A stretch of 64,000 nt of DNA. Source: a virus. The translations under genes and the position numbers were made by a program. Numbering within the stretch: the stretch's first letter is position 1; each line of letters begins with the position of its first letter. The notes below the pieces were generated by a model, which saw only the letters and a list, made by a program, of their open reading frames with translations, did no database searches and had not been told where the DNA came from. The stretch covers positions 32,001 through 96,000 of the IMG/VR virus record IMGVR_UViG_3300047554_000255. One strand, written 5' to 3'. Below, in pieces: positions 3,551 through 53,480 of this stretch.

Positions 3551-3574
3551 TTTGTTAAAAAACCAAACAACATT

Positions 3575-3952: not shown

Positions 3953-3971
3953 TTTAAGTTGCTAATGTACT

Positions 3972-4002: not shown

Positions 4003-4045
4003 ATGCACTATACACGGGGGAACAGCTTAACTGAACAACTGCATA

Positions 4046-5992: not shown

Positions 5993-6002
5993 TAATATAG
6001 TT

Positions 6003-6389: not shown

Positions 6390-6391
6390 TC

Positions 6392-6820: not shown

Positions 6821-7260
6821 CACACCTAAAGACTTGCTTATATCTTGATGATGTACGTACTCCACTAGAAGATAAGCCTGGATATCATCCATGGGTTATC
6901 GTTAGAAACTATGATCAGTTTGTTGAATACATAACTCAGCATGGAGTACCTGACTTTATATCGTTTGACCATGACTTAGGTAAAGAACATACTAATGACT
7001 ACTTTGCTCAAGTATTAGCTCAGGGTTTCCAAGATCCTAAGTACGATGACTATAAAGAAAAGACTGGTCTACACTGTGCTATGTGGCTAACAGAATATTG
7101 CATGGATAATAATGTTCCTCCAAAGACATGTGCTGTTCATAGTCATAATCCTGTAGGATCTAATAACATACAAAGTTGTATTAATAGTTTTAAGAAACAT
7201 CTAGGACTTCCTCAAGATTGTTATCTTGGAAGAGTACCTTTTAAAGTAACTGAAGAATGA
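6817..7260 (+). CDS. cyclic-phosphate-processing receiver-like domain protein
   Basis: LYLDDVR, ISFDHDLG, TG..CA.W and VHSHNPVG motifs. Confidence 0.75.
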   Translation: MTHLKTCLYLDDVRTPLEDKPGYHPWVIVRNYDQFVEYITQHGVPDFISFDHDLGKEHTNDYFAQVLAQGFQDPKYDDYKEKTGLHCAMWLTEYCMDNNVPPKTCAVHSHNPVGSNNIQSCINSFKKHLGLPQDCYLGRVPFKVTEE

Positions 7261-20625: not shown

Positions 20626-20626
20626 A

Positions 20627-23600
20627 TTAGTTACACTTCTTGTTAAGTTTATTCTCGTTCTCTAGTTTCTTAGTAGTAGTTGCTATTGACTTCAACTCAT
20701 CATCGTTACCTTTGATTAGATCTTTGTTAACTGTTTGGTTAGTACCAAACTGTTGTCCAAAGTCCATATCCATGAACTTAGCCAATGCTTCTTCTTGAGA
20801 TAAAGGTGCTTGTGATTTAGATGTATCCGTTACATTAATATACGCAGAATCATTGACTTTAGCCTCCTCTTCAGCAATTAACATAGTGTATCTTGCATCA
20901 ATCTCTTTTGCTTTTTCTTCGTAGTATTTTACTTGCTCAGGTAATGCATTAATTGCTTCTTCTGCAGTATCATACTCATCAATAGTAGAACCATCTGTAT
21001 CATCAATAATCTCATTACCATTAAGAACTGGTTTACGAACCAACTCTAGTTCTTTTGCTTGCTTTTCTTTTAACTTACTAATAGCATCAGATGTAGATAA
21101 AGTAGGAGCTATAGGAGCAGGAGCTTTTGGTGCAACTTCAGGTTTAGTACCTGATGATGGAGTCTCTGAATCTATATTACCAAATACAACAACAGGGTTA
21201 GAGAAGTGTACTAACTCATCAGCATCTGTATTAGCTTCATCGTAAGGACGTCCTTCTTCTAATGTAGTCTCAAGTGTTTGTAACATATATTCGTTATACG
21301 TCATAGGCTGTGATTGCTCTAAAGCACCAGTATCAGGATTGATAGTAAGATCAGTCATTAACTTATCATTACCAATACCTGCTGATTGCTCAGTACCAAA
21401 GCGTATACTGTATCTTAAGTTTGCTGCAATATCGTAAAACTTATTGATTTTTTCTTCTGATATCTCATCTAAGTTTCCGATAATAAGACTATCTTTCTTC
21501 TTATCACCTGTGTTTACTTGCCATATTGATAAGTATCCTTTTGGTGTAATGTTAAAGTGAACCTTACCTTGACTTATTGGATTGTATGCTTTTGAGCTAG
21601 TATGAGTAATATAATCATTAACATACTTGCTTAAACGTGCAAAGTCAGCAGTCTCTCCGTCAATAAACTCAATACCATAAGCTTTGTACACAGCTTGGAT
21701 AATAGCAAGATCACTATCTTTACCATTCTTTCCTGCTGCTACATCAACGTTATAGTTATGAAACGCTCTCCATGAACCAAGAATAAAATCAATATGTCCG
21801 TCTTTTAATACAGGAACTGTAACAAGAGAAGCAAGACGCTTACCTGTTGGAGTTGGTATTATAGCAACTGGCCATCCATTAGCTTTACCGTCAGTAATAA
21901 TGTTTGGTACATAAAGATTACTCTCAGAGTACTTATCAGTAACATGTACTTTACCTTGCTTGATAATAGCAACTTGAGTATTCTTACTTAAAGCTTGCTT
22001 CAATGGTTTCTTTGAACCGTCAGTTCTTAGTACACCAACTGACTTTGCTATTACAGTACTTGTAAATACAGTTGCTTTATCTTTATTAAAGCCGTTGAAC
22101 AATGCTTTTCTATGATCAAGAATAGCTTGACGTTGAATAGCAAGGTTATCAATAACGGTACCGTCAGGTGTAACAATACGTTCTTTTGTGTGAGCTAATA
22201 CTCCTGAGTCAGAATATCTAGCTGTAACAAACTTAACTGTTGGTAAGTATCCAAGCTTTATCTTTTTACCATTATGCATAGTATAGATAGCAACTGGGAA
22301 GTCATCAATAGCTTCTTGTTTTATTTTACCGTCAGCATCAAAGAAGTCTTCTTTCTTACGCTTTGTGATACCAGTTTGTTGAACGTAATCATAATCATCA
22401 AAGTCAGCAATGTTAGAATCAATCTCAAACATTAAAGGAGTACCTTCTTGTATACGAGATGTTCCTAAGATTAATGGATAAGACTCATTACCGTCAGTAC
22501 GCTTTAATCTACGTACACCTTTTTTATCTGTATATACTACAAAGTTATCAGATGCATTGTTAATCTTTGATCCAGAGTTGATTGGAGTTCTTGAATCTTC
22601 CTCAACAGATGTATCAGGATTTGTACCATCAACATAATCAATATCAACATTATCCGTAGTATACTCAAGAGCATCAAGATCAACATCTTCTTCTTGAGCT
22701 TCTTTTGCTTTCTGTACTTCTTTCTTCTGAGCTTCAGTAACCGTAGCTACTGGAGTGACCATTGTTTTTGCTTTTGGATTAGAAGATACAGTAATAGCAT
22801 TGTTTGTAAGGAAATCAGCTAACTGCTTATCTGTAAGCTCATACTCTGATTCATTACCATGTTGTACCCAAACTCTATCTTTACCAACAGAAACAATTTT
22901 GACTACTATCTCTGAACCATCAGTTGGTACTATATAATTACCAAGAACAAACTTAACTCCGTTTACTTCAAGACTATTGTTAGGATTAGCTTCATATTCT
23001 TCTTGCTCAGGATCAAGTTGTTCTTCATCAACAACTACTGGAGTCTCAGTTGGAGCTTCAGCAACTACTGGAGGTTGTTCAACTTGAACAGCTTCTTCTG
23101 GAGTTACTGGTACTGGTTGATCTTCAGTTGATACTTCTAGTGTTGGTTCAACCTCTGTAGGCTCTGCTACTTCAGTTGGAATATTATTAGATGACTTAGC
23201 ACCTGTATAAGTAAACTCAACATCAGTGTAGTTCTCTTTTGAAGGATGAGCAATATTAAACGCTATATCTTTATTATTAACACCGTAGTTTAAAAGAATC
23301 TCTCTACCTTTTGTGCTAAATCCAACAAAAGCAGCAGGGTTCATAACCCCCATACCCTCTTCAGATATCTCTAGTTGTGACTTAATTACTTGGATATAAC
23401 CTTCTTTTAAATCTGCAAGAAGAGCTTCAACATTTATAGTTCCTCCTTCTGGTGCATTTGCTGCATCTTCAACATCTTCTGTTAAGTCAGATGTATCAGC
23501 ATCAGTAACGTTCTCTCCATCTTCTGGTGCTACAGCTCCTGTAAGAGCATCTGTAAATGATTTAGTAGCCTCATCCTTTGCTTCTTTTGCTAACTGCTCT

Positions 23601-26296
23601 TGTACTACTTTCTTTGCAGCCTTCATACGATTAGCTAAAGCAACAATACTTGTTGGATCTGCTAGGAAGTTATAAGCATTAAGATGTTCTTCAGAGTCAT
23701 TGTTTAACTGGATGTACTCTAATAGATCTTCGTAAGTCTCATCAATATCTGTATTAGATAAAAGAGCAGTGTTTAAACCAGCTTCTTCAGTCTTATAGTT
23801 AATGAATCTCTTGTAAGCATCTTTTGCATAACGTTGCTCACGCTTAGACATGTTAGTCTCATCGCGATTAGATAACTTCTCCCATGAGTCTAACCACTTT
23901 GCAATAGCTTGTAGTTGACGCTCTTTATACTTAAGAGTTTGTGCCTCTTCAGGAGTACGCTTCTTTACTTGTTTAAGGTTGTCTATCTCCTTTATAAGAA
24001 GATCCATCTCACCAAGCATCTTAGCTTGAGAACCTAATACTTTATATGCAGCAGAAGCGGCTCCTCCAAGGTTAGGATTAGCAGCAGCTCTTGTGTATAA
24101 GTTATTTGCTCTTTCAATAGCAGACTTTGCTTTGAATGAGTTTGTTGCAAGCATCTCAATATAATCATCAAGAACACTCTTTAACATCTGAGCATCTTTC
24201 TGACCTTGACTACCTTCAGCGTATAAATCTGGTTGGATTAAATCGCCATACTTTTCGTTTAACGTTTCCCATGTTTTGTTAAACGTTTCAACATCATCAG
24301 CAATCTTGTTAAAGTATTCCTTAACAGACTTAGCACTATCAACTGTTGGATCTAAGCCGTATGCTTCTTTTGCATCCTCAACACTAAATGATTCTCCTTG
24401 ACCTCTAATAGTATCAATCAAAGCAGAAACCATACCTGCTTTCTTTGCAGCTGAAACAGCTTTTGCAAATGCAGTATCTCTTGAGTTGTAGTAAGTATAC
24501 TTATCTTTATTACCAACAGCTTCCTGCATTGTAGCAGCAGCCTTATTTTGAACCTTAAAGTTTGCTATCTCATCTTTTAATACAGCATAAGGATTCTTGT
24601 AGAACTCGTTTATCGCAGCAACAGTAGCAGCCTTATCTTTCTTTATCTCTTCTCTCTGCTTATCAGTGGTCATCATACGTTCTTGTACTTTGCCCATTGT
24701 AAAGTTGATTGGAGATAATAATCGACCAGTAACAGCACCCATCAAGAATGTCTTCATTCCTTGAGTATCTGCTAATGGATTCTGAACACTACTCATGATA
24801 GCATCAGTCTTACCAGAGTATCCTTTCTTACCATGATATAAGTCATAGTAATAATCCTGAAGACCCTTGTTAGAACCTTCTTGGAATAACTCTTGTAAAC
24901 CTTCTGATGTCTCCCACTTGAATAAGTTCTTTCCAAGAAACTTACTTACTTGCCATGCTGCTTCCTTTTTACCAAAGTCAGTAGCAATCTCTTTTGCTGC
25001 ACCAAGAGCTCCTAATGAACCAACTTGATATACTTTAGTCAGTTCTTTATCAGCAACCTTACCTGATACCTTTAATACGTCATCAGCATATTGTCCAACA
25101 TTCTTGAATAATCTACGCTCAGCATTAAAGTGACCAAGCATGTTATCAAACTGGAATCTATTAAGAGCAAATAGCATACCAAAGTTAACGTTGAAGTTAT
25201 CTGAGGATGCATCTTTTGATACTCTATCAATACGCTCTAAATCTTCACCAACTGGTAACTCACCTGTTCTTTCAAGATGCTGTTCTGTTAAACGATCTTT
25301 AAGTTCTTTGTATGTACCAGCTGCTTCAAAAATGGCTTCTGAGCGAGCCATGTTAGCTTCACTTAACGTTCTTCTAAACCCACCAAAGGTTAACGCTGCA
25401 ATCTGAGCAGCACCTGCACCATTCTTACCAGCAACAACTGCTTTCTCAATAGCGTTTGTAGTAGATCCAATAGGATTAAACTTCTGGAAACCTTTCCATA
25501 TAGTCTTTGCTAATCCTTCTTGTTTATAAATATCTCCAAGTGATTTGTTTAATCTTGCAAACTCTTCAACGTCTTGAAGCTTATCAACCCCTTTCATGAA
25601 TCGCATTCCAAGCTTTGTAGCTGAGAATAAACTAGATGCACCAAAGGTTAATAACTCTTCTGATAAAGCTTGAGCAATCGCACCAACTGCAAAACCTGAG
25701 TTCTGAACAAGATCACCAAAGAATTGCTTGTTAAACACAGACTTCTCTGAATCAGCACTTCTAAAGATAGCGTACTTATTCATTACATCTTCTTGCATCT
25801 TTGCCATCTGATACATCTCTGTTTCATCTGGTTGTAGCTTTGATGCATCAAAAGAAGTCATTGCATCAGCAAGTCTTCCCCAACCTTTCCATCCTTCAAG
25901 GAATGTATTAGAAGCTAGACGACCTGCACCTGCAAAAGCATTACCCATTGTATCACCCCAAGTTTGTCTTGACGCATACAACTCTTCATTATTTCTTCTA
26001 GGATCAAAACCGAGCTCAGCAGAGTATGATGAGTTAGTATATCTATCTAACTGTGTCTGCTCAGGATTAAAGTTTATTGGCTGCATTTGAGTGGACAAAG
26101 AAGGTCCACCTGCCAATGCTCCTGATAAAAAAGAAGCCGTAGGATCAGCAGTAGATGAGCTAACTAGTTGTTGTGCTTGTTCTTGACCACGTTGCTCAAA
26201 AGGATCGATAAAATCTAACAGCTTTGGCTCTAAGTCTGGTGTTTTAATATCAGGACCTCCAAGGCTATTATTGAGCGAGTTTAATATAGACTCCAT
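20627..26296 (-). CDS. giant virion ejection/cargo protein (first of the giant trio)
   Basis: 1889 aa. Gly/Ala-rich hydrophobic N-terminal segments, an EGLQELFQE motif and acidic Pro/Glu linkers. The only Cys is residue 1888. Confidence 0.75.
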   Translation of the reverse strand: MESILNSLNNSLGGPDIKTPDLEPKLLDFIDPFEQRGQEQAQQLVSSSTADPTASFLSGALAGGPSLSTQMQPINFNPEQTQLDRYTNSSYSAELGFDPRRNNEELYASRQTWGDTMGNAFAGAGRLASNTFLEGWKGWGRLADAMTSFDASKLQPDETEMYQMAKMQEDVMNKYAIFRSADSEKSVFNKQFFGDLVQNSGFAVGAIAQALSEELLTFGASSLFSATKLGMRFMKGVDKLQDVEEFARLNKSLGDIYKQEGLAKTIWKGFQKFNPIGSTTNAIEKAVVAGKNGAGAAQIAALTFGGFRRTLSEANMARSEAIFEAAGTYKELKDRLTEQHLERTGELPVGEDLERIDRVSKDASSDNFNVNFGMLFALNRFQFDNMLGHFNAERRLFKNVGQYADDVLKVSGKVADKELTKVYQVGSLGALGAAKEIATDFGKKEAAWQVSKFLGKNLFKWETSEGLQELFQEGSNKGLQDYYYDLYHGKKGYSGKTDAIMSSVQNPLADTQGMKTFLMGAVTGRLLSPINFTMGKVQERMMTTDKQREEIKKDKAATVAAINEFYKNPYAVLKDEIANFKVQNKAAATMQEAVGNKDKYTYYNSRDTAFAKAVSAAKKAGMVSALIDTIRGQGESFSVEDAKEAYGLDPTVDSAKSVKEYFNKIADDVETFNKTWETLNEKYGDLIQPDLYAEGSQGQKDAQMLKSVLDDYIEMLATNSFKAKSAIERANNLYTRAAANPNLGGAASAAYKVLGSQAKMLGEMDLLIKEIDNLKQVKKRTPEEAQTLKYKERQLQAIAKWLDSWEKLSNRDETNMSKREQRYAKDAYKRFINYKTEEAGLNTALLSNTDIDETYEDLLEYIQLNNDSEEHLNAYNFLADPTSIVALANRMKAAKKVVQEQLAKEAKDEATKSFTDALTGAVAPEDGENVTDADTSDLTEDVEDAANAPEGGTINVEALLADLKEGYIQVIKSQLEISEEGMGVMNPAAFVGFSTKGREILLNYGVNNKDIAFNIAHPSKENYTDVEFTYTGAKSSNNIPTEVAEPTEVEPTLEVSTEDQPVPVTPEEAVQVEQPPVVAEAPTETPVVVDEEQLDPEQEEYEANPNNSLEVNGVKFVLGNYIVPTDGSEIVVKIVSVGKDRVWVQHGNESEYELTDKQLADFLTNNAITVSSNPKAKTMVTPVATVTEAQKKEVQKAKEAQEEDVDLDALEYTTDNVDIDYVDGTNPDTSVEEDSRTPINSGSKINNASDNFVVYTDKKGVRRLKRTDGNESYPLILGTSRIQEGTPLMFEIDSNIADFDDYDYVQQTGITKRKKEDFFDADGKIKQEAIDDFPVAIYTMHNGKKIKLGYLPTVKFVTARYSDSGVLAHTKERIVTPDGTVIDNLAIQRQAILDHRKALFNGFNKDKATVFTSTVIAKSVGVLRTDGSKKPLKQALSKNTQVAIIKQGKVHVTDKYSESNLYVPNIITDGKANGWPVAIIPTPTGKRLASLVTVPVLKDGHIDFILGSWRAFHNYNVDVAAGKNGKDSDLAIIQAVYKAYGIEFIDGETADFARLSKYVNDYITHTSSKAYNPISQGKVHFNITPKGYLSIWQVNTGDKKKDSLIIGNLDEISEEKINKFYDIAANLRYSIRFGTEQSAGIGNDKLMTDLTINPDTGALEQSQPMTYNEYMLQTLETTLEEGRPYDEANTDADELVHFSNPVVVFGNIDSETPSSGTKPEVAPKAPAPIAPTLSTSDAISKLKEKQAKELELVRKPVLNGNEIIDDTDGSTIDEYDTAEEAINALPEQVKYYEEKAKEIDARYTMLIAEEEAKVNDSAYINVTDTSKSQAPLSQEEALAKFMDMDFGQQFGTNQTVNKDLIKGNDDELKSIATTTKKLENENKLNKKCN

Positions 26297-29388: not shown

Positions 29389-32300
29389 TTAACGTTGCCC
29401 GAACATTGCTAAGAATGGATTAACAGCACCCATCATACTTGCTACTTGCTTGTCTGGATACCCATCGTAGTTACTATCTGTTGTAGTTCTAGTTGATTTA
29501 CCAGATAACTGTGATTCTGCCCACTTCTCAGCCATTGCTTGAGGCATACCTAATGTTTTAGTTGCATAAGCTAACAAATCAGGATATGTATTCATACCTG
29601 CAGCAGAACTACCAGTTGTTGAGTTAAAAGGATTCTTACCACCTTTAAATGTAGATCTACCAGTAATAGGATCCATTGCAAAGTATGGATTAGATCTATT
29701 AACCATATCAAGCATAGCTCTATTCATAAATGCATTCTGATATGCAGCTAATGTTTGCTTATCAGCAGCATCTCTCATTGAGAAGTTCTCTAAGTTATAC
29801 TTATTAACCATCTCACCTAACATATTAGCAGCTTGTGCTCTTTGTGCTAAGTTTTGATTCTCAAGGGCAGTGTTTGTAGCATTAACTTGATTAGCAATAC
29901 CAACGTTCTGCATGTTTGTTGCAGCACCAATATTTGATATAGCTTCTAGTTGCTTACCTGCTATTTGACTAGCTCCTGCAAGATTAGCTTGTGGTCTACC
30001 AAATGTACGTAAGCCTTGGTTCTGCATGTTTGCTTGTTCAGCAACTGCAGCATACTGTCTTGTAGGATCAGCAAATGCAGCTTCTTGTTTTACATAATCA
30101 GGAGCTTGAACAAACGGAGTCATTGTTGGAACACCAGCTCTTGTAAATAAAGATTGTAGCATTGCTAACTTATCTGGTGTCATATAAGAAAATCTATCAG
30201 CAGATTGCTTTTTAGCTACTTGTTTTACTGAAGCTTGCTTAGCTGCTACTGGTGCTGTTTCTTCAGGTCCCATTTGAGCTTCGTCATCACCTGTCCAATA
30301 AGATACAGGTTTTGTTTGTCCAATAACTGGTTGTTGAATATTAACTGGAAGACCTGGCTTCTTTAAAGGAAGCTTATTATAAGGAGTTAATGAAGGAGTA
30401 CTATACGTTAACTCACCAAACTTATCATCTGTAGCAAGAGGAGAAAGACCCGCTGCTATCAACTGTGGATTAACATACTCTTGGAAAGCTCTTGTAGCAC
30501 CAGGTATTCTTGGATCCCATGTTGGAGCGTTTTGGAAGAACTCTGGGAATCTTTGCTTAAAGTCTGCTTGATGTGCAGCATCCCACCAGTTCTCTTCTCC
30601 GTATACACCAGCTTTAGTTTTTGATTGCATTACAGGAACTGATCCTGGAGTACGTGCGTTCAACGGCATGCCAACATTATAGTTTGGCATCAATGAACTA
30701 AGAGTAGCTTGATCTTGTGGAGAATAAACTGGAACTCTCTGTACTTGACCTGCTGTTTGATATTCAACAAGACCACCATCTTCTTTTGCAAAGTTTCTAG
30801 CAAAGTTAGCTTTCTTAACCATCTCTGGTGAATACTCATCTTTATTTGCTAAGATGTGTGCAGCAGCTTCTTGAGTGCTCATACCCATGCGTGTAGCTTG
30901 AGCTTTGAATGTACCTTTCTTTGATGGATCTAAATGAATACCACCATAAGCCATATTAGATGTAATCTTTTCTTGAACGTAATCTGGTAAAGCTTTGAAG
31001 CCTGGATTATTAATACCACCTTCTTGATACCATGCATTACCTGAGAATGTTGAACCACCACGCTTTTGATACTCCATAGCTTCAGGTGATTGTTCCATAC
31101 CTTGCGGTTCTTGCATTCCTTGTAACTGTTCTGCAATCTCTGGAGGTAAAGCCATCATAGCAGCTTGAGGGATACCTTGAGGGAACCCTTTCTTTGCTTC
31201 TTGAGCTAACGCTAACTGGGCAAGCTTTAACTTGTTGTTGTTCATCATCATCTCAGCAGTACGTTTCTGATACTGATCTGCATTTGGATCTGCTAAGATA
31301 GCTTTATATTTGTTTATTTCATACTGTTTAGCTAAATCAGCAGGAGTATATCCTTTGCTTGAACCAACAGATTTACCAAACTGAGCTAAAGCTTGACCTT
31401 TTAACTTCATGCTTTTTGTATCAGAATAGATAAATGTACCTGGTTGTAAGTTTAATGGAGTACCACCTTGCGAGTGACGCTTACCGCCAATCTTTGAGTG
31501 TTCCATCTCACCATCGTTATCTAAGTCACCATACGCAGTTTCACCACGTTCAGCTTCTAAGTTTGCCATATCTCTTGGTACAGCTTGTAAGGTATCTTTA
31601 ACAACATATGGATCTGGTTGACCCATCTCATTATCAATAACACGAGAACCAAGATCTAAACCAAGACCAGATTGTCCACCGTAAGCCATCATCTCACCGC
31701 CTTCTTCTCTACCAAAGATATTCTGTGGCATATAGAAAGGACGCTTTGAATCCCAACCATCACCCATCTGATCACCAGGTATTCTGTTACGAGTCCAGTT
31801 TGGCATATTAGTAACTACAGGTGTTTGCTTCTTACCTTTTTTTGCAGGTAAGTTTGGATAAAATACAGGACCTTGGATTATTGATTCCCAAACAGATGGA
31901 GCATCATCCCAACCATCTCCATAGTTTGCAGCACCAACAAAAGGTTGTGGGATATATCTAATACCGCTTGCAGGAAGTGGTCCTTGATCTTCCCAAGAAT
32001 TATCAGGTGCTGCTGGTAACGTAGAACGTTTGCTTTTTTTGACTGGTGCTTTACCCCAGCTATCATCATTATTAGTAGCAGGTGCAATATTACCAGGAGC
32101 TCCAAAAGGTTGAGGTATATATCTCATACCACTAGCAGGAGAAGGCATTGGTGTATTCCAAGAAGGATCTGTTGCTGTTGGCAAGCCAGATCTTTTATTT
32201 TTGGATTGAGGAGCTGCTTGTTCTTTTAATAAAGAAGATAAGTCTTTTTGATTTTTAAGCATCTCAAGCATCTGAAGATTTTGCTCTGCCGTACCCTTAT

Positions 32301-32535
32301 AGTTTTTAATCCCAAGGTTCTGAGCTATCTTCTTGCGAGATTGGTAGTCAGCATTAGCTGCTTGACCATGAGCCGCTAAATAGTCATACACCGAAGGATT
32401 AGCTATTGCTTTTGGATATGCAGATTCAATACCTGCTGCTTGAGCCAATAGCTCTTCTTGAGTAAACATCGGCTGACCACCAGCTTGATACTGACGTGGC
32501 TGATTAAGCGTAACTCTTACTTTATACTTCTTCAT
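29389..32535 (-). CDS. modular virion cargo protein with xxxGG-delimited modules
   Basis: 1048 aa with no Cys. It has a DUF3597-like segment (SRKKIAQNLGIKNYKGTAEQN), an EAERGE...HSQGG domain, an IHLDPSKKGTF...KANFARNF module and many [YMK]xxGG motifs. Confidence 0.65.
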   Translation of the reverse strand: MKKYKVRVTLNQPRQYQAGGQPMFTQEELLAQAAGIESAYPKAIANPSVYDYLAAHGQAANADYQSRKKIAQNLGIKNYKGTAEQNLQMLEMLKNQKDLSSLLKEQAAPQSKNKRSGLPTATDPSWNTPMPSPASGMRYIPQPFGAPGNIAPATNNDDSWGKAPVKKSKRSTLPAAPDNSWEDQGPLPASGIRYIPQPFVGAANYGDGWDDAPSVWESIIQGPVFYPNLPAKKGKKQTPVVTNMPNWTRNRIPGDQMGDGWDSKRPFYMPQNIFGREEGGEMMAYGGQSGLGLDLGSRVIDNEMGQPDPYVVKDTLQAVPRDMANLEAERGETAYGDLDNDGEMEHSKIGGKRHSQGGTPLNLQPGTFIYSDTKSMKLKGQALAQFGKSVGSSKGYTPADLAKQYEINKYKAILADPNADQYQKRTAEMMMNNNKLKLAQLALAQEAKKGFPQGIPQAAMMALPPEIAEQLQGMQEPQGMEQSPEAMEYQKRGGSTFSGNAWYQEGGINNPGFKALPDYVQEKITSNMAYGGIHLDPSKKGTFKAQATRMGMSTQEAAAHILANKDEYSPEMVKKANFARNFAKEDGGLVEYQTAGQVQRVPVYSPQDQATLSSLMPNYNVGMPLNARTPGSVPVMQSKTKAGVYGEENWWDAAHQADFKQRFPEFFQNAPTWDPRIPGATRAFQEYVNPQLIAAGLSPLATDDKFGELTYSTPSLTPYNKLPLKKPGLPVNIQQPVIGQTKPVSYWTGDDEAQMGPEETAPVAAKQASVKQVAKKQSADRFSYMTPDKLAMLQSLFTRAGVPTMTPFVQAPDYVKQEAAFADPTRQYAAVAEQANMQNQGLRTFGRPQANLAGASQIAGKQLEAISNIGAATNMQNVGIANQVNATNTALENQNLAQRAQAANMLGEMVNKYNLENFSMRDAADKQTLAAYQNAFMNRAMLDMVNRSNPYFAMDPITGRSTFKGGKNPFNSTTGSSAAGMNTYPDLLAYATKTLGMPQAMAEKWAESQLSGKSTRTTTDSNYDGYPDKQVASMMGAVNPFLAMFGQR

Positions 32536-32548
32536 AATAATATAGTAT

Positions 32549-32564
32549 CTACTCTATAATTTAC
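32549..32564 (-). promoter_or_regulatory. putative phage late promoter GTAAATTATAGAGTAG
   Basis: Variant of the repeated intergenic motif. Confidence 0.55.
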
Positions 32565-32602
32565 TAAAATATTGCTAGTTTAACAAGCTAAACTTCAAGG
32601 GT

Positions 32603-35600
32603 TTAACAGAACTCTACTTTACCACCCATAGCTTTAATCTGCTGTATCTCTTCCATAGTAAGTTCCATCTCACCGCCAAACTGTGATTTACTAAGTGCTT
32701 TCTTATAACTGTTTAGGTTCTTATTAAAGTTTTGACCCCATGTCATTCTATTACCATAGTCTGCTCTTGGGATTTGATTCATTACAGTCATATCTCCTTT
32801 TGCTGCTCTTGAAGCAAACTCAGGATAGTACCATGCACCTAAAGCGTAGACACCATAGTTCTTAATATGATCAACAGCAAGTGATCTAGCAGCTTGATAC
32901 TCAACTTGTGGATCTTTATCAAAGGCTGCTTTAAACGCATTAAACGTTGGGAAGGCATCATTAAACTGATCTTTCTTGTAAATCTGCTTAAGAGTACCAT
33001 CAGTGATTTGGAATGTACCTGAAGCACTAGCTCTCTTACCACCATCTCCAATAAGTTTAGTACGCATACCAACTTTTGATTGTCCTTTCTTTGAACCAGA
33101 TTCTGTACCAGCAATAGCTTCAAGCATCTTATCTGGATCTAATTCTAAACCAGCAACATCAGCAGCAGGTGTTACGTTATATGATTCAGGACTTGCAGGT
33201 GTTGCCACTTCAGGGGATTTTGTTGCTGGCATATCAAAAGCAGCATAGTTTAAATCTGGTGTAAGATTAGGAACCATTGTTGGTGCCATACCTAAAGCAA
33301 CATCAAGACTTGTTAAACCACCATCAGCAAAGAAACCAGGAACACTCATTTGATCTGGTTTGTATAAACCATATGAGCTTGGTCCTTGAGAGTAATCTCC
33401 ACGATTCATTATTGAATCATACTGTTGATTCCATGTAGCATTCTGAGAACGTAACATCTGACGGTTTGCTTCTTCTCTTTTTGCTTGTGCATTAAGATTA
33501 GCTCCACCAATAAATGTGTTAAGTGCAAAGAAAGGATTAAGCATAGGATTAGACTTCTGCTGTTTTTTTTGATCAGTTGTTGTAGCAGTAGCTGCTGTAT
33601 TCTCTTTTAATATCTTACTCTTCATCTGACCTGCAATACCTGCCCCTTCTTGAGATACTGCATCATATACACCAAATGGATTTGTATCAGATGGCATTTG
33701 TGCTTGAGCATCAGCTGCTTCTTGTGCTGGATTAAGATTAGGGAAGAATGGGTTTTGTTTACCAACTTGTGCTTTTAATAAACCACCTTTCTTTTTATAA
33801 GCTAAGCGTTGTACCATCTCGTTATAAGCAGTACCACCTTGTTGCTTTATAAACTTAGCTTTGAAGTCATTAAACGCATCTGCTACAGAACCAGTAACAC
33901 TATTAAAAGTACTAGCTGCTCTATCCATAAGACCAGGCTCACCCATTGCATTAACAACGTTATACTTTGATATACCAGGTAAAGCAATACCATCTTTTGG
34001 ATCATCAATAACATAGAATGCAGGATGATCTTTACTTGATGCTGTACCATGATACATCATACCGTCGCCAAAATAACCAATATGTTCATGACCAGCATTA
34101 TTGCCAGCATACAGCATGCGGTTAGCATAGTCTCTACTATCATTAGCTTCAGCCGTAGTTTTAGCCATCTTACCATCAAAGTTATCTTTACGATTAAGAC
34201 CAACTAATACACCAGATAGTTGTTTAACTTCTTCTGGAAACCCATAACTTCTTGGATTATGTAACGGTTTACCTGCCTCTAGTTCTTCTTTATACCCTGG
34301 GTTAACGTATAGTTCAGGAATGTTACCTCTATATCCCCAAGCATTATTTCTACCAAAGTCATATCCTTTTGCATCGCCAATCTGTCTTGCAATATCAGCA
34401 CATCCTTTCGCGGTACAAACAAACTTAGAACCAGGATACATCTTGTTTAGCTCTTCAGCTTTTGCAATACCTTCAGCATCTAATGCGTTATAACCATACT
34501 CTGATAGATCAATGTATCCTTTCTTTGGTTTAATAACTTGACCAGCTGTTTGATACTTCTGCATGCCACCATACTTTAACTCTGACATCTCTAAGAACTT
34601 CTGTTGATTGTAAGCTACGTCATCACGTCTAAAATCAGACATCATCTGCTTAGCAATCTCAGCACGGTTTTGTGGATCTCTTACTTGTGATAAGATATCA
34701 GCAATACCTTCTACCATCTCGCGTTCATTACGTGTCTGACCACCTTCAGCAAATGGTAAAAACTTATTACCTGGTAGTTGCTGTATTGCTTGATAAGCAT
34801 CTGAGCCTCTACCAGCTGTTCCAATAGCATCAATAGTTTTTGAAAGAGTTGCATTCTTTGGTAAAGCATTATATAATACTTTATCTAAGCCTTTATATTT
34901 TTTAAGATGAATACCCGCTTTAGTTAACTTTCCTAGTTTTCCTAATAAAGGTAAAGCTCCAGCTATTTCAATACCTGTTTCATACCACTTAGAGTTTGGA
35001 TCTACTGCGGAACGATATACATCATCCCAAGAAGTAATTCCTGTTGGGTCAAATACCTCTGCAATATTTTCAAGAGTAGAATCAGTCTGACCTCCATCTT
35101 GCCAAGTAGCTCTAGCAAAAGCTCTGAAGTAAGGATTAGCATCTAAGTTCTTTTTATGACGTGCATAGAAAGCTGCTTTACGTTCTGGATCTTTTGGATG
35201 TTGTCCTAACTTAGAATCACCAAAGTATTTAACTGTACCATCTGGACCAGTTACTTTGTGTGTCTTACCTTTTCTATCAGAGCTTCTTGTAACAGTATAA
35301 CCACCGCTACCAAACTCAGGCATATATCCACCAAAGCTCATCTCTGATAATATCTTATGTTGAACATAGTCAGGCAGTGCTTGAAAACCAGGATTGTTTG
35401 TACCACCCTGACCCATAACTTCCATACCATATTGACCTTTTCTCCAGCCTCCACCATGTGACTTATACCACTTAGCAGCAAATCCATTAGCATAAGCAGA
35501 TGGATATACATCATACTTAGCTTTAGCTGCTGCCTTAGCTCTTGACCATAATGCTGGGTTAGTAGGAACGTTTCCGCCTTTTGCCATTAGTTCTGTTGGG

Positions 35601-36154
35601 TAATCGTAGTTATAATCCATTATATCTCCACCGTATTGTTTTCTTCTATGTTGATAGTTAATACGCTCACTAGAAGTTTTTGATCTCTTAAACTTTTCAC
35701 GTTCAGCACTTGATAACTCACTTGCTGTTTTTGGTGTATCTTCACTTACTCTTTTTGAAGGACGACATGCTGGATAACCTGCTCTGCTTTCACCTTCTTG
35801 TCTACCGCAAGGTTTACCAGTCTTAACATCAACCCACTTCTCTGCAAACCATCTATCTAATCCACCGTGCTGACCACCCTTAGCCATCTCAGCATATTCA
35901 TCCATAAAAGGATACTCCATAACACTACTAGCACCAGGATAAGAATATTGCTGATTAGGATACATCATCTGAGGTTGTCCAACATTAGGAACACCTAACA
36001 CAGGATAGCTAACACCATCCATCGTAATGTTATTAGAAGGGATGTTTGTTACCTCACCAGGATGTTGCCATTGATTCTTTGGAACCTTTGGCTTACTTGG
36101 TTTTTTGTTTAGATCCTTTGTAATCTGTGTTAATAATGATCTGTTAAAACTCAT
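32603..36154 (-). CDS. modular virion protein: small xxxGG-delimited domains + NlpC/P60-like region + lysozyme-like/lytic transglycosylase domain
   Basis: 1183 aa. AIAGTESG...ASGTFQIT...ALGAWY is a lysozyme-fold motif set. GCAD...NAW...HIG resembles NlpC/P60 or CHAP. About 15 xxxGG motifs. Confidence 0.65.
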   Translation of the reverse strand: MSFNRSLLTQITKDLNKKPSKPKVPKNQWQHPGEVTNIPSNNITMDGVSYPVLGVPNVGQPQMMYPNQQYSYPGASSVMEYPFMDEYAEMAKGGQHGGLDRWFAEKWVDVKTGKPCGRQEGESRAGYPACRPSKRVSEDTPKTASELSSAEREKFKRSKTSSERINYQHRRKQYGGDIMDYNYDYPTELMAKGGNVPTNPALWSRAKAAAKAKYDVYPSAYANGFAAKWYKSHGGGWRKGQYGMEVMGQGGTNNPGFQALPDYVQHKILSEMSFGGYMPEFGSGGYTVTRSSDRKGKTHKVTGPDGTVKYFGDSKLGQHPKDPERKAAFYARHKKNLDANPYFRAFARATWQDGGQTDSTLENIAEVFDPTGITSWDDVYRSAVDPNSKWYETGIEIAGALPLLGKLGKLTKAGIHLKKYKGLDKVLYNALPKNATLSKTIDAIGTAGRGSDAYQAIQQLPGNKFLPFAEGGQTRNEREMVEGIADILSQVRDPQNRAEIAKQMMSDFRRDDVAYNQQKFLEMSELKYGGMQKYQTAGQVIKPKKGYIDLSEYGYNALDAEGIAKAEELNKMYPGSKFVCTAKGCADIARQIGDAKGYDFGRNNAWGYRGNIPELYVNPGYKEELEAGKPLHNPRSYGFPEEVKQLSGVLVGLNRKDNFDGKMAKTTAEANDSRDYANRMLYAGNNAGHEHIGYFGDGMMYHGTASSKDHPAFYVIDDPKDGIALPGISKYNVVNAMGEPGLMDRAASTFNSVTGSVADAFNDFKAKFIKQQGGTAYNEMVQRLAYKKKGGLLKAQVGKQNPFFPNLNPAQEAADAQAQMPSDTNPFGVYDAVSQEGAGIAGQMKSKILKENTAATATTTDQKKQQKSNPMLNPFFALNTFIGGANLNAQAKREEANRQMLRSQNATWNQQYDSIMNRGDYSQGPSSYGLYKPDQMSVPGFFADGGLTSLDVALGMAPTMVPNLTPDLNYAAFDMPATKSPEVATPASPESYNVTPAADVAGLELDPDKMLEAIAGTESGSKKGQSKVGMRTKLIGDGGKRASASGTFQITDGTLKQIYKKDQFNDAFPTFNAFKAAFDKDPQVEYQAARSLAVDHIKNYGVYALGAWYYPEFASRAAKGDMTVMNQIPRADYGNRMTWGQNFNKNLNSYKKALSKSQFGGEMELTMEEIQQIKAMGGKVEFC

Positions 36155-39100
36155 CGTTGACTGATTTGTAGCTTAGTGCTTATTATCTTGAATAACATTT
36201 TGGTTGAACCACTCTTTATCTTACGTAAGAATACACGGTTTGCATAGTGTCTAAACTTCTTACGCTCAATCTCTGACTTCTTATAGTCAACATACTTTGG
36301 ATTAAGAGCTCTTGTATATCCGTTTGACGATACATTAAACATAGGAACCTCGTTACCAACAAACTCACCTCTGTTCTTTGTAATATCCCAGAACTGGTTA
36401 AAGCGGTACTTGTTCTCTTCTTTTGAATAGTTGATCTTTATGCTATCAGATTGAACCATTGGATATAGTAACAAGCTTATAGGATCATCCTTTCTCTTTA
36501 AGTTAAGGTCTAAGTAACCTGATACTTGTTCTGAATTATATACTAAAGCTCTATCAAAGTTATCATCAAGAAGATGGAACTTATCATTACCATCATTTAG
36601 ATACTTAAAGCACTCAAGAATGTACTCAACGTTCTTAACAGTAGCTACATTAACACCTGTTGATGCTACATACTCTACTTCAAATGGATAATCAACACCA
36701 TAGAAGTTACAGTATAAGTCAGTTCTGCTGTTATGTCTCCATACACCTTTATCTTGTACAGTCAAGAATGAACTTCTTGCTGGAATAATAAAGTTAGGAT
36801 GCCAGTCATGGATTGATATAAACTGTTCGTTCTTAACATCATAACTCATTGTCCAAGATGCATTCTCAAAATGTAATGGATCTCCAAGAGTTACAGCAGT
36901 CTTTGTTTGTTTAACAACGCCATTATCAATAAACTCTTCTCCTAGTGTGTAGAATCCATTTATTGTGTCGTACTTAAGATCTTTGTTTATTGGCTTGTAA
37001 TCCTTTTTAGTAATGTATAAGATCTCATTAGTATTATCATAGGACATGTTACAACCAACACCAATAAGAGGATTATCGTAGTGAGCAAAGTTTGGAAAAG
37101 CTTTGAGCAACTGTGAAGGAAGATACTTAGCAAACCACCACTTGTTGCCGTTTCTTGAGATTTCTTTATACTGTCCCGCATACTGGAATATTTTACCTTG
37201 TTCCTGAGATACCCAGAATACACCAGCTGGTATACCAACAATAGCATACTTACTCTGACATGAGCCATATTGGTACTCATCATCAGTATTCATAATGTTT
37301 CTCATTGGTTGGTTAAATAAACCTCCATCTCCAACGGTAATCTTGATACCTGCATCTGTTTGTAGTGAGTCAACACCTTGAATCATTATTGGTGATTCAT
37401 TCTCTAACATAATAAGGGCTCCTGTGTGACCAACAGACTTTAAAGCTGTTACTCTACCACTCATATCAATGTAGTTGTTAGGTAAGAAACGCACCCAGTT
37501 ATCTTGCATTTGCTCTTGCTCTTGTGGAAGAGAATACATAATTCTGTTTGGTGAGTAACTATAACATTGCTCAGCTACTTTTGGATCGTAGCTACGAGGC
37601 TGCATTGATCCCCAACTAACATAGTTGTTGTATAACTTAGATACACTAAGAGAGTAATCATACTTGTAGTAGTTACCCTTCTTCATAATGTCTGATCTAA
37701 ACATTGATGTAAGATCAGTATACTTATCCGGATCGTAGTGACGCTTATCAGGAGTCTCATCCCAATCGCGATATGCTAAGTTTACTTCTGACTCTACAAA
37801 GAAGTCTCTAACCCCATTACAGAATAAGTAGAAGTGCCCTCTGTTAACATAAGAATCAACCTCATGTCTATCGTCAAGGTGTGAGAACGCTGTTGTACCA
37901 TCTGTTACTAAACGTTTTGCATCTGTATTCTCTAACCAATATCTTGGGTAAGCAACAGACATTCTTGCACGATAGTCATATAACAACTCATCTTGTTGAT
38001 CATACAACCAATCATGGAAGAATAAGAACGGATTCTTTTCTGTGTAACGACCAATGTAAATATCTCCACCAAATAATACATCAGTTGAATAAACCTTTGT
38101 TTTATCTGGTTGAGTTTGATATACACATGTATATACAGGAACTTGCTTGATAGATTCTAGCTGACCATACTGAGATGGAAACGCTGATTTAATGGCACCG
38201 TAGTATCCTGAGATCGCAGATTTAACCGTTGTATTAAGATCAGTCTGTAACTGTGTCTTTGTGTTTCTACTAGTGTCAACTATTTTTGGAGCATCAAACT
38301 CACGAGTTGTATTAACTAATACATACTTACCTCTATGCAAGTTATTGATTCTATACTCATTGTAAGACTGTAAGTTGTCTCCGATATAGAAAGCATCAGC
38401 TACTTTTCTACGAGCATTATCAACACCTGTGTTAATACTGTAGTTGCTATAGAATCCATGTGAGTCATACTGTGTTGCAAACTGACGCTTTGGTATCATG
38501 CTTGCAACAACGTTTATTACCTTTTCACTGTATTGATCTTTTAATAACTTAGCAGCATAGATTAAAGCAACAACGTTTGCTGTATAGATAGCAAGGTTTG
38601 CAACATAAGCAGCAATTGATATAGCAGTTGTTACAGCACCTGTAGCACCAAAAGCATCTGAAGCAGCAGCAGGAGGAGCTGGAGTTGGAACACCGCCACC
38701 TAAAGAGAACTCGAACGGCTCACCTTCTGTACCGCCAAACTTAATAGTTTTCGCCGCATTCGTAAGGAGATTAGTTGCAATAAGAGTACTAAGTAGATTA
38801 TCAATAGTTCCTTTTGCAGCTTCACTTAAAAGCTTAAACTGTGGGTGTTTGTATACATACTTGAAAGATCCTTCAGATGTACCATATACTTCACTATAAA
38901 CCTTAAGTTCAGATGCTGAAAGATATGGTTTAGAGAATGATGTATCAGGACTATGGAAAGAGAACATGTCTTTTCTATATTCCTTAAGACCATCTTCTAA
39001 ACGATTGTTTCTTGCACCACGATCAATAAAGCTCTTGTTTGACGTTAAGAAAAGATCTTCTCTTAAGTCATTGTATGGATAGTTCTGATACAAACCTTTT

Positions 39101-40749
39101 ACTCCTGGTTGATCAGGCATATCATGTTGACGCATGTTGTTTAATAAACCCTTTGCAACAACAGTCTTATTACCTTCTCTTGAACCTCTAAGGATCTCAT
39201 ATCCAATAATATCATTTAATGGATTACCAGCATTATCTACTGGTACAGAGATATTCTCAAACTTAACTCCAAGAATACGTATCTTATCACCACCTTGTGA
39301 CTGATGATATACTTGTTCAGCTAATGAGTTATCAGGAAACTTATGATGTCTAATCTTTTCTCCACATAAGTTACCCCAAATCTCTGGTTTATTATCTGGA
39401 TAAATCTCTGTAGATTCCCAGAAACCCATCTCTCCTTCAGCAATAACAACACCACCGTCTGCACGTGGTGTATTAGGAACAGATAAAACCTCAGCTGTGT
39501 TCTTTACTTTCCATACTTCGGGTGAATCATCTCCTTCAATAGCACTTGCATCTGCAGAGAATAAGTAATTACGCTCATCTGTACGAGGAGCTCTACCAGG
39601 AATATGGTATGATGCTGACTTATCACCTGTATTGTATATCCATCTGATAAAGAAAGCATACTGCTCATCTCTCATGTATCCTGTATTGTTACCACCTTTT
39701 AAGTAATAGTTTGCAGGATACTCAACACTTGCCCACTTAGTTTGGATCTTATTAGCTAATGGTTGATAATTAAAGTCAAACTTACTTTGTATACCAACTC
39801 TAACAAGATAGTTGTTTAATCTAAATGTTGCATCAGATGATTCAATCGCTGGAGTTACTAATGGAATAAGTTCAAGTGGTACTGTAATAAGATCTGGTTC
39901 AACAGAATCAATATACACACGGTTCTGATTAACTGAGTATATACCTAATCTTTTGGCCGTAGTTTGATTATTTACTACTGAGATGAGTACTAACTCAAAC
40001 TCATCAAAATCTTGGTCTGTATTCGAGATATCAACGGTTAAACTACCCCCTTCTCCATCATGATCAAACAAACCTTGTACTTCAGATACAACAAGATAGT
40101 CAGTAACACGAATACTATTGATTGAATAAGCAATCGCTACTTGATAAGAACCATTACGTAATGTACCAGCAGCTTTACCTTTCTCAATATTAACACATGG
40201 TATAGTTAAGATTTGAGCAAGACGCATCTGCTCAACGTCAAGAACTCCTGTTGATTGTTCAATGTAGCACTCGCCTTGCTTTACTTTCTTTGTAACATAA
40301 GGAACATTATCAAGATCTAATACACGAGATGGATTACGACGACCATCATCAAAGTATACTTTATATCCGCAATCAAATCCTTTACGAGATGCTCCTGTGA
40401 TAAGATTGTTCTTATGAAAGTTTAACCCACGGTCATTAACAACAGTCTTGTATGTTCCAAGGTTAGCATCAAAGATACCAATCTCAGAATCAACGTTGTC
40501 AGTTGTAAATAAAGCCCATGTACCATCTGTAATAGGTATAGAACCAATAAGTGTATATGGTAAGTCAACTGTATGTAGGTTAGCTGGCTCATTACCAAGA
40601 ACACCAACTTGCCCATCATGTGAGTTGTTGACAGCGTTTCGTGCATGCAACCATACGCCTTCACCAACGAAGGTTTCGTTAAGGTCTTTCATCATACCTT
40701 TTGAGAAGGTATTGATTACACTAGCGTTATCTTTTGGTGATGTTGCCAT
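36151..40749 (-). CDS. tail stabilisation/muzzle protein (crAss Tstab, P22 gp10-like)
   Basis: 1532 aa. N-terminal NTFSKGMMKD..., GYMRDEQYAF motif and beta-propeller-like C-terminus. It lies directly downstream of the ring-protein genes. Confidence 0.8.
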   Translation of the reverse strand: MATSPKDNASVINTFSKGMMKDLNETFVGEGVWLHARNAVNNSHDGQVGVLGNEPANLHTVDLPYTLIGSIPITDGTWALFTTDNVDSEIGIFDANLGTYKTVVNDRGLNFHKNNLITGASRKGFDCGYKVYFDDGRRNPSRVLDLDNVPYVTKKVKQGECYIEQSTGVLDVEQMRLAQILTIPCVNIEKGKAAGTLRNGSYQVAIAYSINSIRVTDYLVVSEVQGLFDHDGEGGSLTVDISNTDQDFDEFELVLISVVNNQTTAKRLGIYSVNQNRVYIDSVEPDLITVPLELIPLVTPAIESSDATFRLNNYLVRVGIQSKFDFNYQPLANKIQTKWASVEYPANYYLKGGNNTGYMRDEQYAFFIRWIYNTGDKSASYHIPGRAPRTDERNYLFSADASAIEGDDSPEVWKVKNTAEVLSVPNTPRADGGVVIAEGEMGFWESTEIYPDNKPEIWGNLCGEKIRHHKFPDNSLAEQVYHQSQGGDKIRILGVKFENISVPVDNAGNPLNDIIGYEILRGSREGNKTVVAKGLLNNMRQHDMPDQPGVKGLYQNYPYNDLREDLFLTSNKSFIDRGARNNRLEDGLKEYRKDMFSFHSPDTSFSKPYLSASELKVYSEVYGTSEGSFKYVYKHPQFKLLSEAAKGTIDNLLSTLIATNLLTNAAKTIKFGGTEGEPFEFSLGGGVPTPAPPAAASDAFGATGAVTTAISIAAYVANLAIYTANVVALIYAAKLLKDQYSEKVINVVASMIPKRQFATQYDSHGFYSNYSINTGVDNARRKVADAFYIGDNLQSYNEYRINNLHRGKYVLVNTTREFDAPKIVDTSRNTKTQLQTDLNTTVKSAISGYYGAIKSAFPSQYGQLESIKQVPVYTCVYQTQPDKTKVYSTDVLFGGDIYIGRYTEKNPFLFFHDWLYDQQDELLYDYRARMSVAYPRYWLENTDAKRLVTDGTTAFSHLDDRHEVDSYVNRGHFYLFCNGVRDFFVESEVNLAYRDWDETPDKRHYDPDKYTDLTSMFRSDIMKKGNYYKYDYSLSVSKLYNNYVSWGSMQPRSYDPKVAEQCYSYSPNRIMYSLPQEQEQMQDNWVRFLPNNYIDMSGRVTALKSVGHTGALIMLENESPIMIQGVDSLQTDAGIKITVGDGGLFNQPMRNIMNTDDEYQYGSCQSKYAIVGIPAGVFWVSQEQGKIFQYAGQYKEISRNGNKWWFAKYLPSQLLKAFPNFAHYDNPLIGVGCNMSYDNTNEILYITKKDYKPINKDLKYDTINGFYTLGEEFIDNGVVKQTKTAVTLGDPLHFENASWTMSYDVKNEQFISIHDWHPNFIIPARSSFLTVQDKGVWRHNSRTDLYCNFYGVDYPFEVEYVASTGVNVATVKNVEYILECFKYLNDGNDKFHLLDDNFDRALVYNSEQVSGYLDLNLKRKDDPISLLLYPMVQSDSIKINYSKEENKYRFNQFWDITKNRGEFVGNEVPMFNVSSNGYTRALNPKYVDYKKSEIERKKFRHYANRVFLRKIKSGSTKMLFKIISTKLQISQR

Positions 40750-53446: not shown

Positions 53447-53480
53447 TATCAACTAGGGTATACTATAAGATACTTATTTA

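Follow-up and report, generated by a model that had tools for sequence, protein, structure and literature searches.

Two adjacent genes of a crAss-like phage encode long proteins that are strings of small cassettes, and these cassettes are bounded by a conserved junction of the form hydrophobic-x-x-Gly-Gly. The genes lie in a window of 64,000 nucleotides (positions 32,001 to 96,000 of IMG/VR record IMGVR_UViG_3300047554_000255), the whole stretch of DNA analysed here, and their products of 1183 and 1048 amino acids (aa) are called protein 1 and protein 2 hereafter. The source contig measures 111,220 bp and has 111 open reading frames (ORFs); the enrichment of the motif is restricted to these two genes. 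The motif stands at the borders of cassettes that are mobile between proteins, it is conserved in homologues, and the two genes occupy a recurrent slot beside the structural genes, from which both proteins are predicted to be packaged in the virion and ejected. Judging from its structural genes, which include a crass-type major capsid gene (PF23898), the owner of the window is a crAss-like (Crassvirales-type) phage.

Crassviruses are among the most abundant phages of the human gut, and their relatives are common in water. Several megadaltons of protein are packed and ejected by these phages. The class to which the two proteins belong, that of crassvirus cargo and polyvalent proteins, is known; the junction rule and the cassette system are new. 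In the literature that could be searched we found neither a description of the motif nor a paper that connects DUF5872 and DUF5754 with the cargo of crassviruses and with a Gly-Gly motif or its processing.

A hydrophobic-x-x-Gly-Gly motif is enriched in two adjacent genes

A first-pass annotation of the window had described both proteins as modules punctuated by an xxxGG motif. All 22 pentapeptides that it listed, 14 in protein 1 and 8 in protein 2, were found at the residues given, and its nucleotide ranges for three modules correspond to residues 95-171, 195-239 and 286-351 of protein 1. Further Gly-Gly pairs, absent from its list, lie inside folded or conserved parts, at residues 97, 234-235, 883, 1038 and 1177 of protein 1 and 350, 357 and 965 of protein 2. 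Compared with shuffled sequences, plain Gly-Gly is weakly enriched (19 versus 12.1 expected in protein 1, p = 0.03; 10 versus 7.3 in protein 2, p = 0.18). The proposed excess of xxxGG over the glycine content thus nearly vanished for the plain pair, whereas it was clear once the hydrophobic context was included. We rejected the plain count as a basis for the finding because it is too weak, and the context-specific test carries the finding instead.

The pattern [FMYWLI]xxGG, which was chosen after the data had been seen, occurs 14 times in the two proteins for 4.4 occurrences expected (p < 2e-4). The narrower [FMYW]xxGG was found 12 times in the two string ORFs, where 2.6 were expected, and 24 times in the other 109 ORFs of the genome, where 21.7 were expected. 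Its enrichment is therefore restricted to the two string genes within the 111-kb genome. Both proteins also contain YQxAG, a variant of the YQxGG form. In AlphaFold models of the proteins (mean predicted local distance difference test score, pLDDT, of 52.8 for protein 1 and 60.3 for protein 2), nearly all the listed motifs fall in segments with a pLDDT below 50, between the folded parts.

The motif marks the borders of mobile cassettes

We located the motif relative to blocks of similarity found by BLAST between protein 1 and its non-close homologues. Among the 541 internal block borders, 51% lie at most 5 aa from a motif, versus 8% of all positions; within the first 560 residues the corresponding values are 55% and 14%. 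The 20-aa bin holding MAKGG(90) contains 53 block starts and 50 block ends, and the two glycines of this junction show identities of 0.86 and 0.91, versus 0.1-0.5 for their neighbours. In protein 2, homologue coverage climbs from 26 to 110 exactly at REEGG/MAYGG.

Each inter-motif segment was also queried against at least 350 proteins of the family, and the presence of a Gly-Gly within about 12 aa was scored on the N- and C-terminal sides. Small cassettes are flanked in 77-100% of their 46-159 copies, the range being 93-100% except on the C-terminal side of the DUF5872 N-half cassette. The values are 100%/96% for the DUF5872 C-half cassette (112 copies), 99%/77% for the N-half cassette (156 copies), 99%/100% for the DUF5754-like cassette (159 copies), 100%/93% for the helical module 473-530 (46 copies) and 100%/100% both for the IHLDPSKKGTF cassette (98 copies) and for the NNPGF mini-cassette, which is carried by 96-132 proteins. 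As a baseline, the large conserved domains of protein 2 are flanked in 2-34% of copies. The cassettes may stand anywhere within their host protein (relative position 0.0-0.96), and some relatives, such as one of 400 aa that has 10 motifs, consist almost entirely of cassettes and junctions. The earlier claim that the motifs sit at the borders of compact modules is thus backed by the block borders, the cassette flanks and the coverage jump.

Several of these modules had been said to resemble small stand-alone phage or giant-virus proteins, and stand-alone phage versions exist. The DUF5872 C-half cassette of protein 1 is 68% identical to an 86-aa stand-alone protein of the podovirus Prochlorococcus phage P-SCSP2, which is encoded between the scaffold and capsid genes. 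About 40 stand-alone DUF5872 C-half proteins of 78-85 aa begin directly with the module and carry no junction motif; the motif is therefore a property of the string architecture and not of the module. In the related contig IMGVR_UViG_3300033076_000279 (positions 2838-7419), the string is split at junctions into four consecutive genes of 388, 96, 198 and 734 aa, so free modules are viable. Three of these four genes retain a short basic leader followed by the motif, including the one for the 96-aa single-module protein.

A string of another kind was seen in the T4-like cyanophage Synechococcus phage S-BM3. Its 338-aa product (713-1726) is made of DUF5872-type and other small basic modules, has no hydrophobic-x-x-GG, and is encoded between the small terminase gene and another hypothetical gene.

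The junction is conserved among homologues

Among 120 homologues of protein 1 we counted 1348 motifs for 319 expected, with more than twofold enrichment in 115 of the 120, and Met occupies position -3 in 27% of their sites, 6.9 times its background frequency. The 119 homologues of protein 2 contain 454 motifs for 180 expected. A sequence logo was built from 2962 non-identical motif sites. Position -3 carries 0.88 bits (M 29%, Y 13%, K 11%, F 7%), and positions -2 (A/Q/K/E) and -1 (Y/E/D/Q/N) carry 0.45 bits each; the first residue after the Gly-Gly is preferentially E (20%), Q (18%) or Y (12%). The junction consensus is thus [M/Y/F/W/K]-[A/Q/K/E]-x-G-G-[E/Q/Y]. Pro follows the Gly-Gly at 3.9% of sites, a mild depletion to 0.63 times background. 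The additional Gly at about +/-9-10 in the logo reflects tandem copies, which follow each other at intervals of 9-10 aa and have a conserved Y-[IM]-P-E spacer between them.

String proteins carry 10-16 copies of the motif, and 39% of 360 proteins have one within their first 30 aa. In an alignment of homologues sharing at most 90% identity, the Gly-Gly of the junctions is 86-88% identical; identity falls to 69% for Gly outside the junctions, to 59% for other residues, and to 3-50% at positions -1 and -2. Overall, the junction recurs in thousands of related phage proteins. The motif is thus real, placed at module borders and conserved in homologues, the opposite of what the first-pass annotation had named as grounds for giving up its proposal. 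Internal translation starts were considered as the cause of the Met at -3 and rejected on inspection, since Tyr, Phe, Trp or Lys substitute for Met and no start context is present.

The two genes occupy the cargo slot of the genome

In the structural block, Pfam profiles matched the muzzle protein (PF25731), ring protein 1 (PF24228), ring protein 2 (PF25702) and the capsid protein (PF23898). The gene of protein 1 directly adjoins the muzzle gene, which like the two ring protein genes stands upstream of it, and the string genes are followed downstream by four giant ORFs of 1010, 1889, 2829 and 1273 aa. In phage PhicrAss001, gp44 (muzzle) is followed by the cargo proteins gp45 and gp46 and then by the virion RNA-polymerase proteins (PMC10172136). 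Because the muzzle gene adjoins them as in PhicrAss001, we assigned the two string genes to the cargo slot, in a genome that also encodes a crass-type capsid protein; this agrees with the earlier description of their products as cargo proteins. In at least 40 contigs of related viruses, the muzzle gene is always followed directly by one to three motif-rich ORFs, and the large ORF that comes next contains no motif at all. By its muzzle protein, the phage is distant (about 25% identity) from its closest cultured relatives, Leptolyngbya phage Lbo-JY46, Cellulophaga phages phi17:2 and phi4:1, and Flavobacterium phages.

Three fibre-like proteins are encoded elsewhere in the window (51695-53452, 54349-58020 and 59393-63139, all on the minus strand). 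Each ends in a Peptidase_S74 intramolecular-chaperone domain, and one of them contains collagen repeats. Beside their genes, the ORF at 58426-59391 (321 aa) has a Gly content of 33% and matches PF21722.

Table 1. Positions in the window of the string genes, their parts and associated features.
Feature	Position	Strand	Evidence
Muzzle protein gene, directly upstream of protein 1 gene	36151..40749	-	PF25731 crAss_MUZ, E 8e-24; phrog_37948
Cargo string protein 1 gene, 1183 aa	32603..36154	-	ORF and translation
Conserved N-terminal beta-rich domain, residues 25-85, NQWQHPG...	35900..36082	-	pLDDT 87-94
Junction MAKGG, residues 90-94, first junction	35873..35887	-	Pentapeptide match and block borders
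DUF5872 C-half cassette, residues 95-176, basic, ends in KQYGG	35627..35872	-	PF19197 profile positions 54-111, E 2.2e-15
DUF5872 N-half cassette, residues 195-251, MAKGG before, MGQGG after	35402..35572	-	PF19197 profile positions 1-45, E 2e-4; phrog_27331
NNPGF... mini-cassette and tandem junctions MSFGG / YMPE / FGSGG, residues 252-285	35300..35401	-	Translations and motif match
DUF5754-like basic cassette, residues 286-355, ends in WQDGG	35090..35299	-	PF19058, E 0.026, below cut-off
Two modules: residues 356-472, ending FAEGG; helical 473-530, ending LKYGG then YQTAG	34565..35089	-	AlphaFold and homologue copies
Papain-like NlpC/P60-like domain, residues 540-765	33860..34537	-	pLDDT 85-93
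Conserved C-terminal tail, residues 1162-1183, GG junction before	32606..32671	-	C termini of 120 homologues
Cargo string protein 2 gene, 1048 aa	29389..32535	-	ORF and translation
Junction pair REEGG/MAYGG (276-287), then conserved core (288-470)	31126..31710	-	Coverage jump; pLDDT 80-88
Cassette insert, residues 490-596	30748..31068	-	Translation and motif match
HELLH, sole HExxH in genome, residue 2635 of 2829-aa giant cargo protein (ORF 12136-20625)	12709-12723	-	Regular expression over 111 ORFs

Modular composition of protein 1

Protein 1 consists, in order, of an N-terminal beta domain, five or six GG cassettes, an NlpC/P60-like domain, a low-complexity part, a putative lytic-transglycosylase-like region and a C-terminal tail (Table 1). 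It has at least 577 homologues, with lengths of 650-2071 aa. Of the homologues, 94 have the N-terminal beta domain, which usually stands at the N terminus (median relative position 0.03) and is closely followed by a Gly-Gly in 89%; it would be the N-terminal address module of the family. The C-terminal tail of 22-25 aa is common to most family members, and its 16 close copies are all terminal.

The first-pass assignment of DUF5872 was upheld by PF19197 (69.9 bits for a gathering cut-off of 27.5, E = 3.7e-19). Colinearity with the Pfam model failed: the C half precedes the N half, the reverse of the model, with two junctions between them. In the related contigs L005 and IMGVR_UViG_3300033076_000279 (L055), the two halves are found in separate adjacent genes. 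This reversed, junction-separated arrangement indicates that Pfam DUF5872 is two separable modules. The assignment of DUF5754 fared less well, PF19058 giving a sub-threshold 15 bits for a cut-off of 27.4. Copies of this DUF5754-like cassette are up to 92% identical, and true DUF5754 cassettes are present in homologues, at other positions. The helical module 473-530 is modelled with a pLDDT of about 75.

Structural comparison of the NlpC/P60-like domain with VIA-align gave modest Z scores of 4.7-5.4, over 100-112 aligned residues, to many NlpC/P60, LytE, CwlO, MepS and Tae chains. Upon inspection of the secondary structure, the candidate catalytic residues Cys585, His691 and His702 appear suitably placed in the model. 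This domain had no Pfam, PHROG or PDB sequence match. With the whole models of proteins 1 and 2, Foldseek returned no match at E <= 0.001, and VIA-align returned the NlpC/P60-like match and generic helical hairpins, nothing else. The lytic-transglycosylase reading of residues ~1000-1156 was rejected: it came from inspection of short motifs, has no Pfam, PHROG or PDB support, and the region has a low pLDDT.

Within the same framework, homologues of protein 1 bear YkuD, glucosaminidase, amidase_2, LysM, DUF3597, zincin and SET domains. The SET domain (PF00856, 32.4 bits) was seen near the N terminus of P0087, a 1217-aa homologue from a related phage, where residues 56-101 precede the GG-delimited cassettes; an injected (lysine) methyltransferase would be the result.

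Modular composition of protein 2

Protein 2 begins with a short basic leader and YQAGG, followed by a small helical domain, disordered repeats, a conserved core, an insert of GG cassettes and a long helical C-terminal part. Its family comprises 2131 clusters at 50% identity. The insert reads QKRGG, YQEGG, the same NNPGF mini-cassette as in protein 1, MAYGG, the IHLDPSKKGTF...ANFARN cassette, KEDGG and YQTAG. The IHLDPSKKGTF cassette is helical, with a pLDDT of about 80 between junctions below 50, and it matches proteins of gut crassviruses in which it is GG-flanked too. A search of the ESM Atlas with this cassette returned small unnamed viral clusters alone (score 0.88), and Pfam and PHROG scans of protein 2 segments gave weak matches at most. 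Residues 107-275 (31711-32217, minus strand) form a long disordered region, with a pLDDT of about 30, which is distinct from the GG-junction system and contains PASG[MI]RYIPQPF twice and GDGWD twice.

A hidden Markov model (HMM) of the core, built from 233 sequences, matches gp041 of Cellulophaga phage phi17:2, which is annotated as a virion structural protein (E = 2e-8). This protein (22653-25340) combines the N-terminal domain type of protein 1 with the core of protein 2 and has the junctions FQAGG/YQNGG/FQIGG/FQSGG; just before it, gp042 (20434-22653) carries two HExxH motifs. Phage phi17:2 is a cultured system suited to cleavage testing.

Interpretation of the junction

Sequence by itself does not tell a cleaved junction from a non-cleaved one, and we infer both a hinge or docking role and the lack of cleavage. 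The reading that we favour, with slightly less than even confidence, is that the junction is a non-cleaved element between cassettes, a short linear motif in an ejected protein organized as beads on a string. Both proteins would have conserved address parts (the N-terminal beta domain and C-terminal tail of protein 1; the conserved core and long helical C-terminal part of protein 2) that enclose a varying series of cell-wall enzymes and of small cassettes able to fold on their own. Each junction would combine a Gly-Gly hinge with a short hydrophobic anchor and serve as a short linear motif that some partner recognizes. The hinge would keep the cassettes structurally independent, and the chain would be stored in an extended form and leave in that form through portal and tail, a route already proposed for gp45 of PhicrAss001. 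Junctions would also be the points at which cassettes are inserted, deleted, swapped or split into separate genes. The tandem motifs with their conserved Y-[IM]-P-E spacer are better explained by a repeated linear motif than by single cut sites.

Published data on PhicrAss001 are consistent with an uncut chain. The portal-bound domain of gp45 was reported as residues 425-552, a range that we quote as published (PMC10172136). The stretch from residue 425 begins AFGGWL, so the chain would be continuous across that Gly-Gly in virions. The 179 residues between the tail-bound helix (214-245) and the portal-bound domain have been proposed to thread the portal (PMC10172136), and all five gp45 junctions at 209-428 lie in or at the ends of this stretch. 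Virion bands of 150, 270 and >300 kDa fit uncut giant cargo proteins (PMC6235969), the supplement of that paper giving no band assignment for gp45.

Several observations weigh against a non-cleaved junction. A passive hinge leaves the Met, Tyr or Phe at -3 and the Glu, Gln or Tyr after the Gly-Gly unexplained; this preference implies recognition of the motif by some partner, which could be a protease. The leaders retained by single-module and split genes ahead of the motif look like propeptides, and the natural splitting of strings at junctions shows that modules can exist free. A co-packaged HExxH domain is conserved, sometimes inside motif-rich strings. The gp45 evidence concerns a single site, with an atypical Trp after the Gly-Gly, in a protein where the motif is weaker and whose homology to the window proteins is not statistically established.

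Polyprotein maturation is an alternative that we consider somewhat less likely, though close behind the first reading. Strings would be packaged via their conserved end modules and then, after packaging or ejection, cut at or next to the junctions by a co-packaged zincin or papain-like peptidase, releasing exchangeable effectors, among them small basic proteins, and wall hydrolases. Candidates for the cutting enzyme are the zincin-like HExxH domain of the giant 2829-aa protein, the papain-like part of protein 1 and a peptidase of the host; the N-terminal leaders would be propeptides. Such a role would suit a motif that is sequence-specific on both sides of the Gly-Gly and flanks nearly every small cassette on both sides, and the leaders and gene splits mentioned above point the same way. 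The HELLH of the 2829-aa protein is a candidate co-packaged zincin peptidase, in a region that matched no Pfam family. A similarly placed HEAFH, close to the C terminus, is present in gp47 of PhicrAss001 and in several relatives and may, like HELLH, mark a conserved zincin-like domain undetected by Pfam; HExxH occurs in cargo-block proteins of 23 of 48 loci. Zincin-mediated processing has been predicted for polyvalent proteins (PMC5512222), and a zincin cutting before a hydrophobic residue could leave the AFGG stretch of gp45 intact.

The spacing of the motif is however unlike that of adenain, Ulp/deubiquitinase, papain-like protease (PLpro) and C39 sites, in which the hydrophobic residue is at P4. 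Pfam scans of the late and structural ORFs found no adenain-, Ulp-, C39- or prohead-type protease nor any other GG-type one, the Peptidase_S74 of the tail fibres being the only protease family in them. Moreover, the reported gp45 model crosses one junction, the giant cargo proteins of PhicrAss001 run full length, closely spaced tandem sites (9-10 aa) with conserved spacers would be unusual as cut sites, Pro after the Gly-Gly is no more than mildly depleted, and many strings have no peptidase domain of their own. These arguments against cleavage are of an indirect kind.

Multivalent docking or condensation seems unlikely to us. In this scheme the hydrophobic-x-x-GG elements would act as stickers that bind a repeated virion partner, such as the capsid interior, the portal or tail lumen, DNA or each other, and would concentrate the strings in the cargo zone. 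The 10-16 copies per protein, the tandem arrays with their spacers and the Met or aromatic residues in disordered linkers would suit such a role, as would the confinement of the motif to the first one to three genes downstream of the muzzle gene. In PhicrAss001 the cargo zone excludes DNA, and segments of gp45 beside junctions are bound to tail rings and portal (PMC10172136). Against this, the docking model has no known partner, one tag per protein would suffice for packaging, and the exact two-sided flanking of every cassette is not needed.

Finally, a chance or compositional feature, or a DNA-level recombination signal with no protein role, is highly improbable and we reject it: plain Gly-Gly is indeed weakly enriched in the two window proteins, but the context-specific enrichment extends over hundreds of homologues and is absent from the rest of the genome, junction Gly-Gly is more conserved than other Gly, and junction codons follow the normal Gly codon use of the genes while the -1 and -2 residues and neighbouring codons vary.

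A fixed junction provides a simple rule for parsing unannotated giant proteins, cataloguing exchangeable payloads and designing experiments, and it reaches at least about 2,100 protein clusters in one of the two families. If the junction is cut, it would define a new phage polyprotein maturation system, a counterpart of adenovirus and African swine fever virus (ASFV) core maturation with a new site rule, and PhicrAss001 gp45 would have to be re-read as separate tail and capsid fragments instead of one portal-threaded chain. If it is not cut, it would be a new linear motif connected with the storage of proteins and their extrusion by way of a phage tail.

Comparison with known systems

The nearest parallel to the string proteins is PhicrAss001 gp45 (cargo protein C1; PDB 7QOG/7QOI/7QOJ/7QOL/8CKB). 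This virion protein is encoded next to the muzzle gene, on its downstream side; it starts with a short basic leader that runs into FDTGG, its small cassettes, one of them related to the IHLDPSKKGTF cassette, are set between aromatic-x-x-GG junctions, and a junction immediately precedes its portal-bound domain. It differs in its weaker motif (9 sites with an aromatic residue or Met near GG versus 3.7 expected, p = 0.014) and in a Gly-rich predicted membrane helix, and the two string proteins of the window contain far more cassettes and enzyme domains than it does. The similarity between protein 2 and gp45 was non-significant by BLAST, by hhalign (E = 0.096) and with the 233-sequence core HMM (hmmsearch E = 0.08-0.3); we keep gp45 as a positional and architectural analogue, gp041 of phage phi17:2 being the only protein of the kind with clear homology. 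In the fold searches with whole models, other domains dominated the results.

Polyvalent proteins (Iyer et al. 2017, PMC5512222) are likewise large polypeptides, packaged or injected, in which numerous unrelated effector domains, some directed at peptidoglycan, occur in shuffled architectures and often together with zincin-like peptidase domains. Here, in contrast, most units are cassettes of 20-80 aa that share a fixed motif at their junctions, and the words 'linker', 'glycine' and 'crAss' are absent from the text of that paper. Several effector domains are present in our case too: two DUF5872 halves and the NlpC/P60-like domain in the window, and YkuD, glucosaminidase, amidase_2, LysM, SET and zincin domains in homologues. 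As for an associated zincin, the window offers no more than the HExxH motif of the 2829-aa neighbour, which had no Pfam match.

Adenain cleaves at (M/L/I)xGG-x and the ASFV polyproteins pp220 and pp62 are cut at GG-x; in adenain, ubiquitin-like, PLpro and double-glycine leader sites, the hydrophobic residue is at P4. As in these viruses, Gly-Gly with an upstream Met or hydrophobic residue recurs here between units of virion-internal, often basic proteins. The analogy, drawn in the first-pass annotation, breaks down in its details: the hydrophobic residue of the window proteins stands three positions ahead of the first Gly, at P5 for a cut after the Gly-Gly, and the late and structural Pfam scans of this phage revealed no C5-, C63- or C48-type protease.

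The internal proteins of T4 and the inner-body proteins of phiKZ have a capsid-targeting leader and sites ending in Glu (L/I-x-E, S/A/G-x-E) that are cut by an assemblin-like prohead protease. They resemble the string proteins as head-packaged, injected cargo with a short N-terminal leader followed by a conserved short site, but no prohead protease was detected in the late and structural Pfam scans of this phage. In polymorphic toxins, VENN in CdiA and DPxGL in Rhs mark one border, before a single C-terminal toxin. There too, a short conserved motif lies at the border of cassette exchange, whereas in the string proteins 10-20 junctions per protein bound every cassette.

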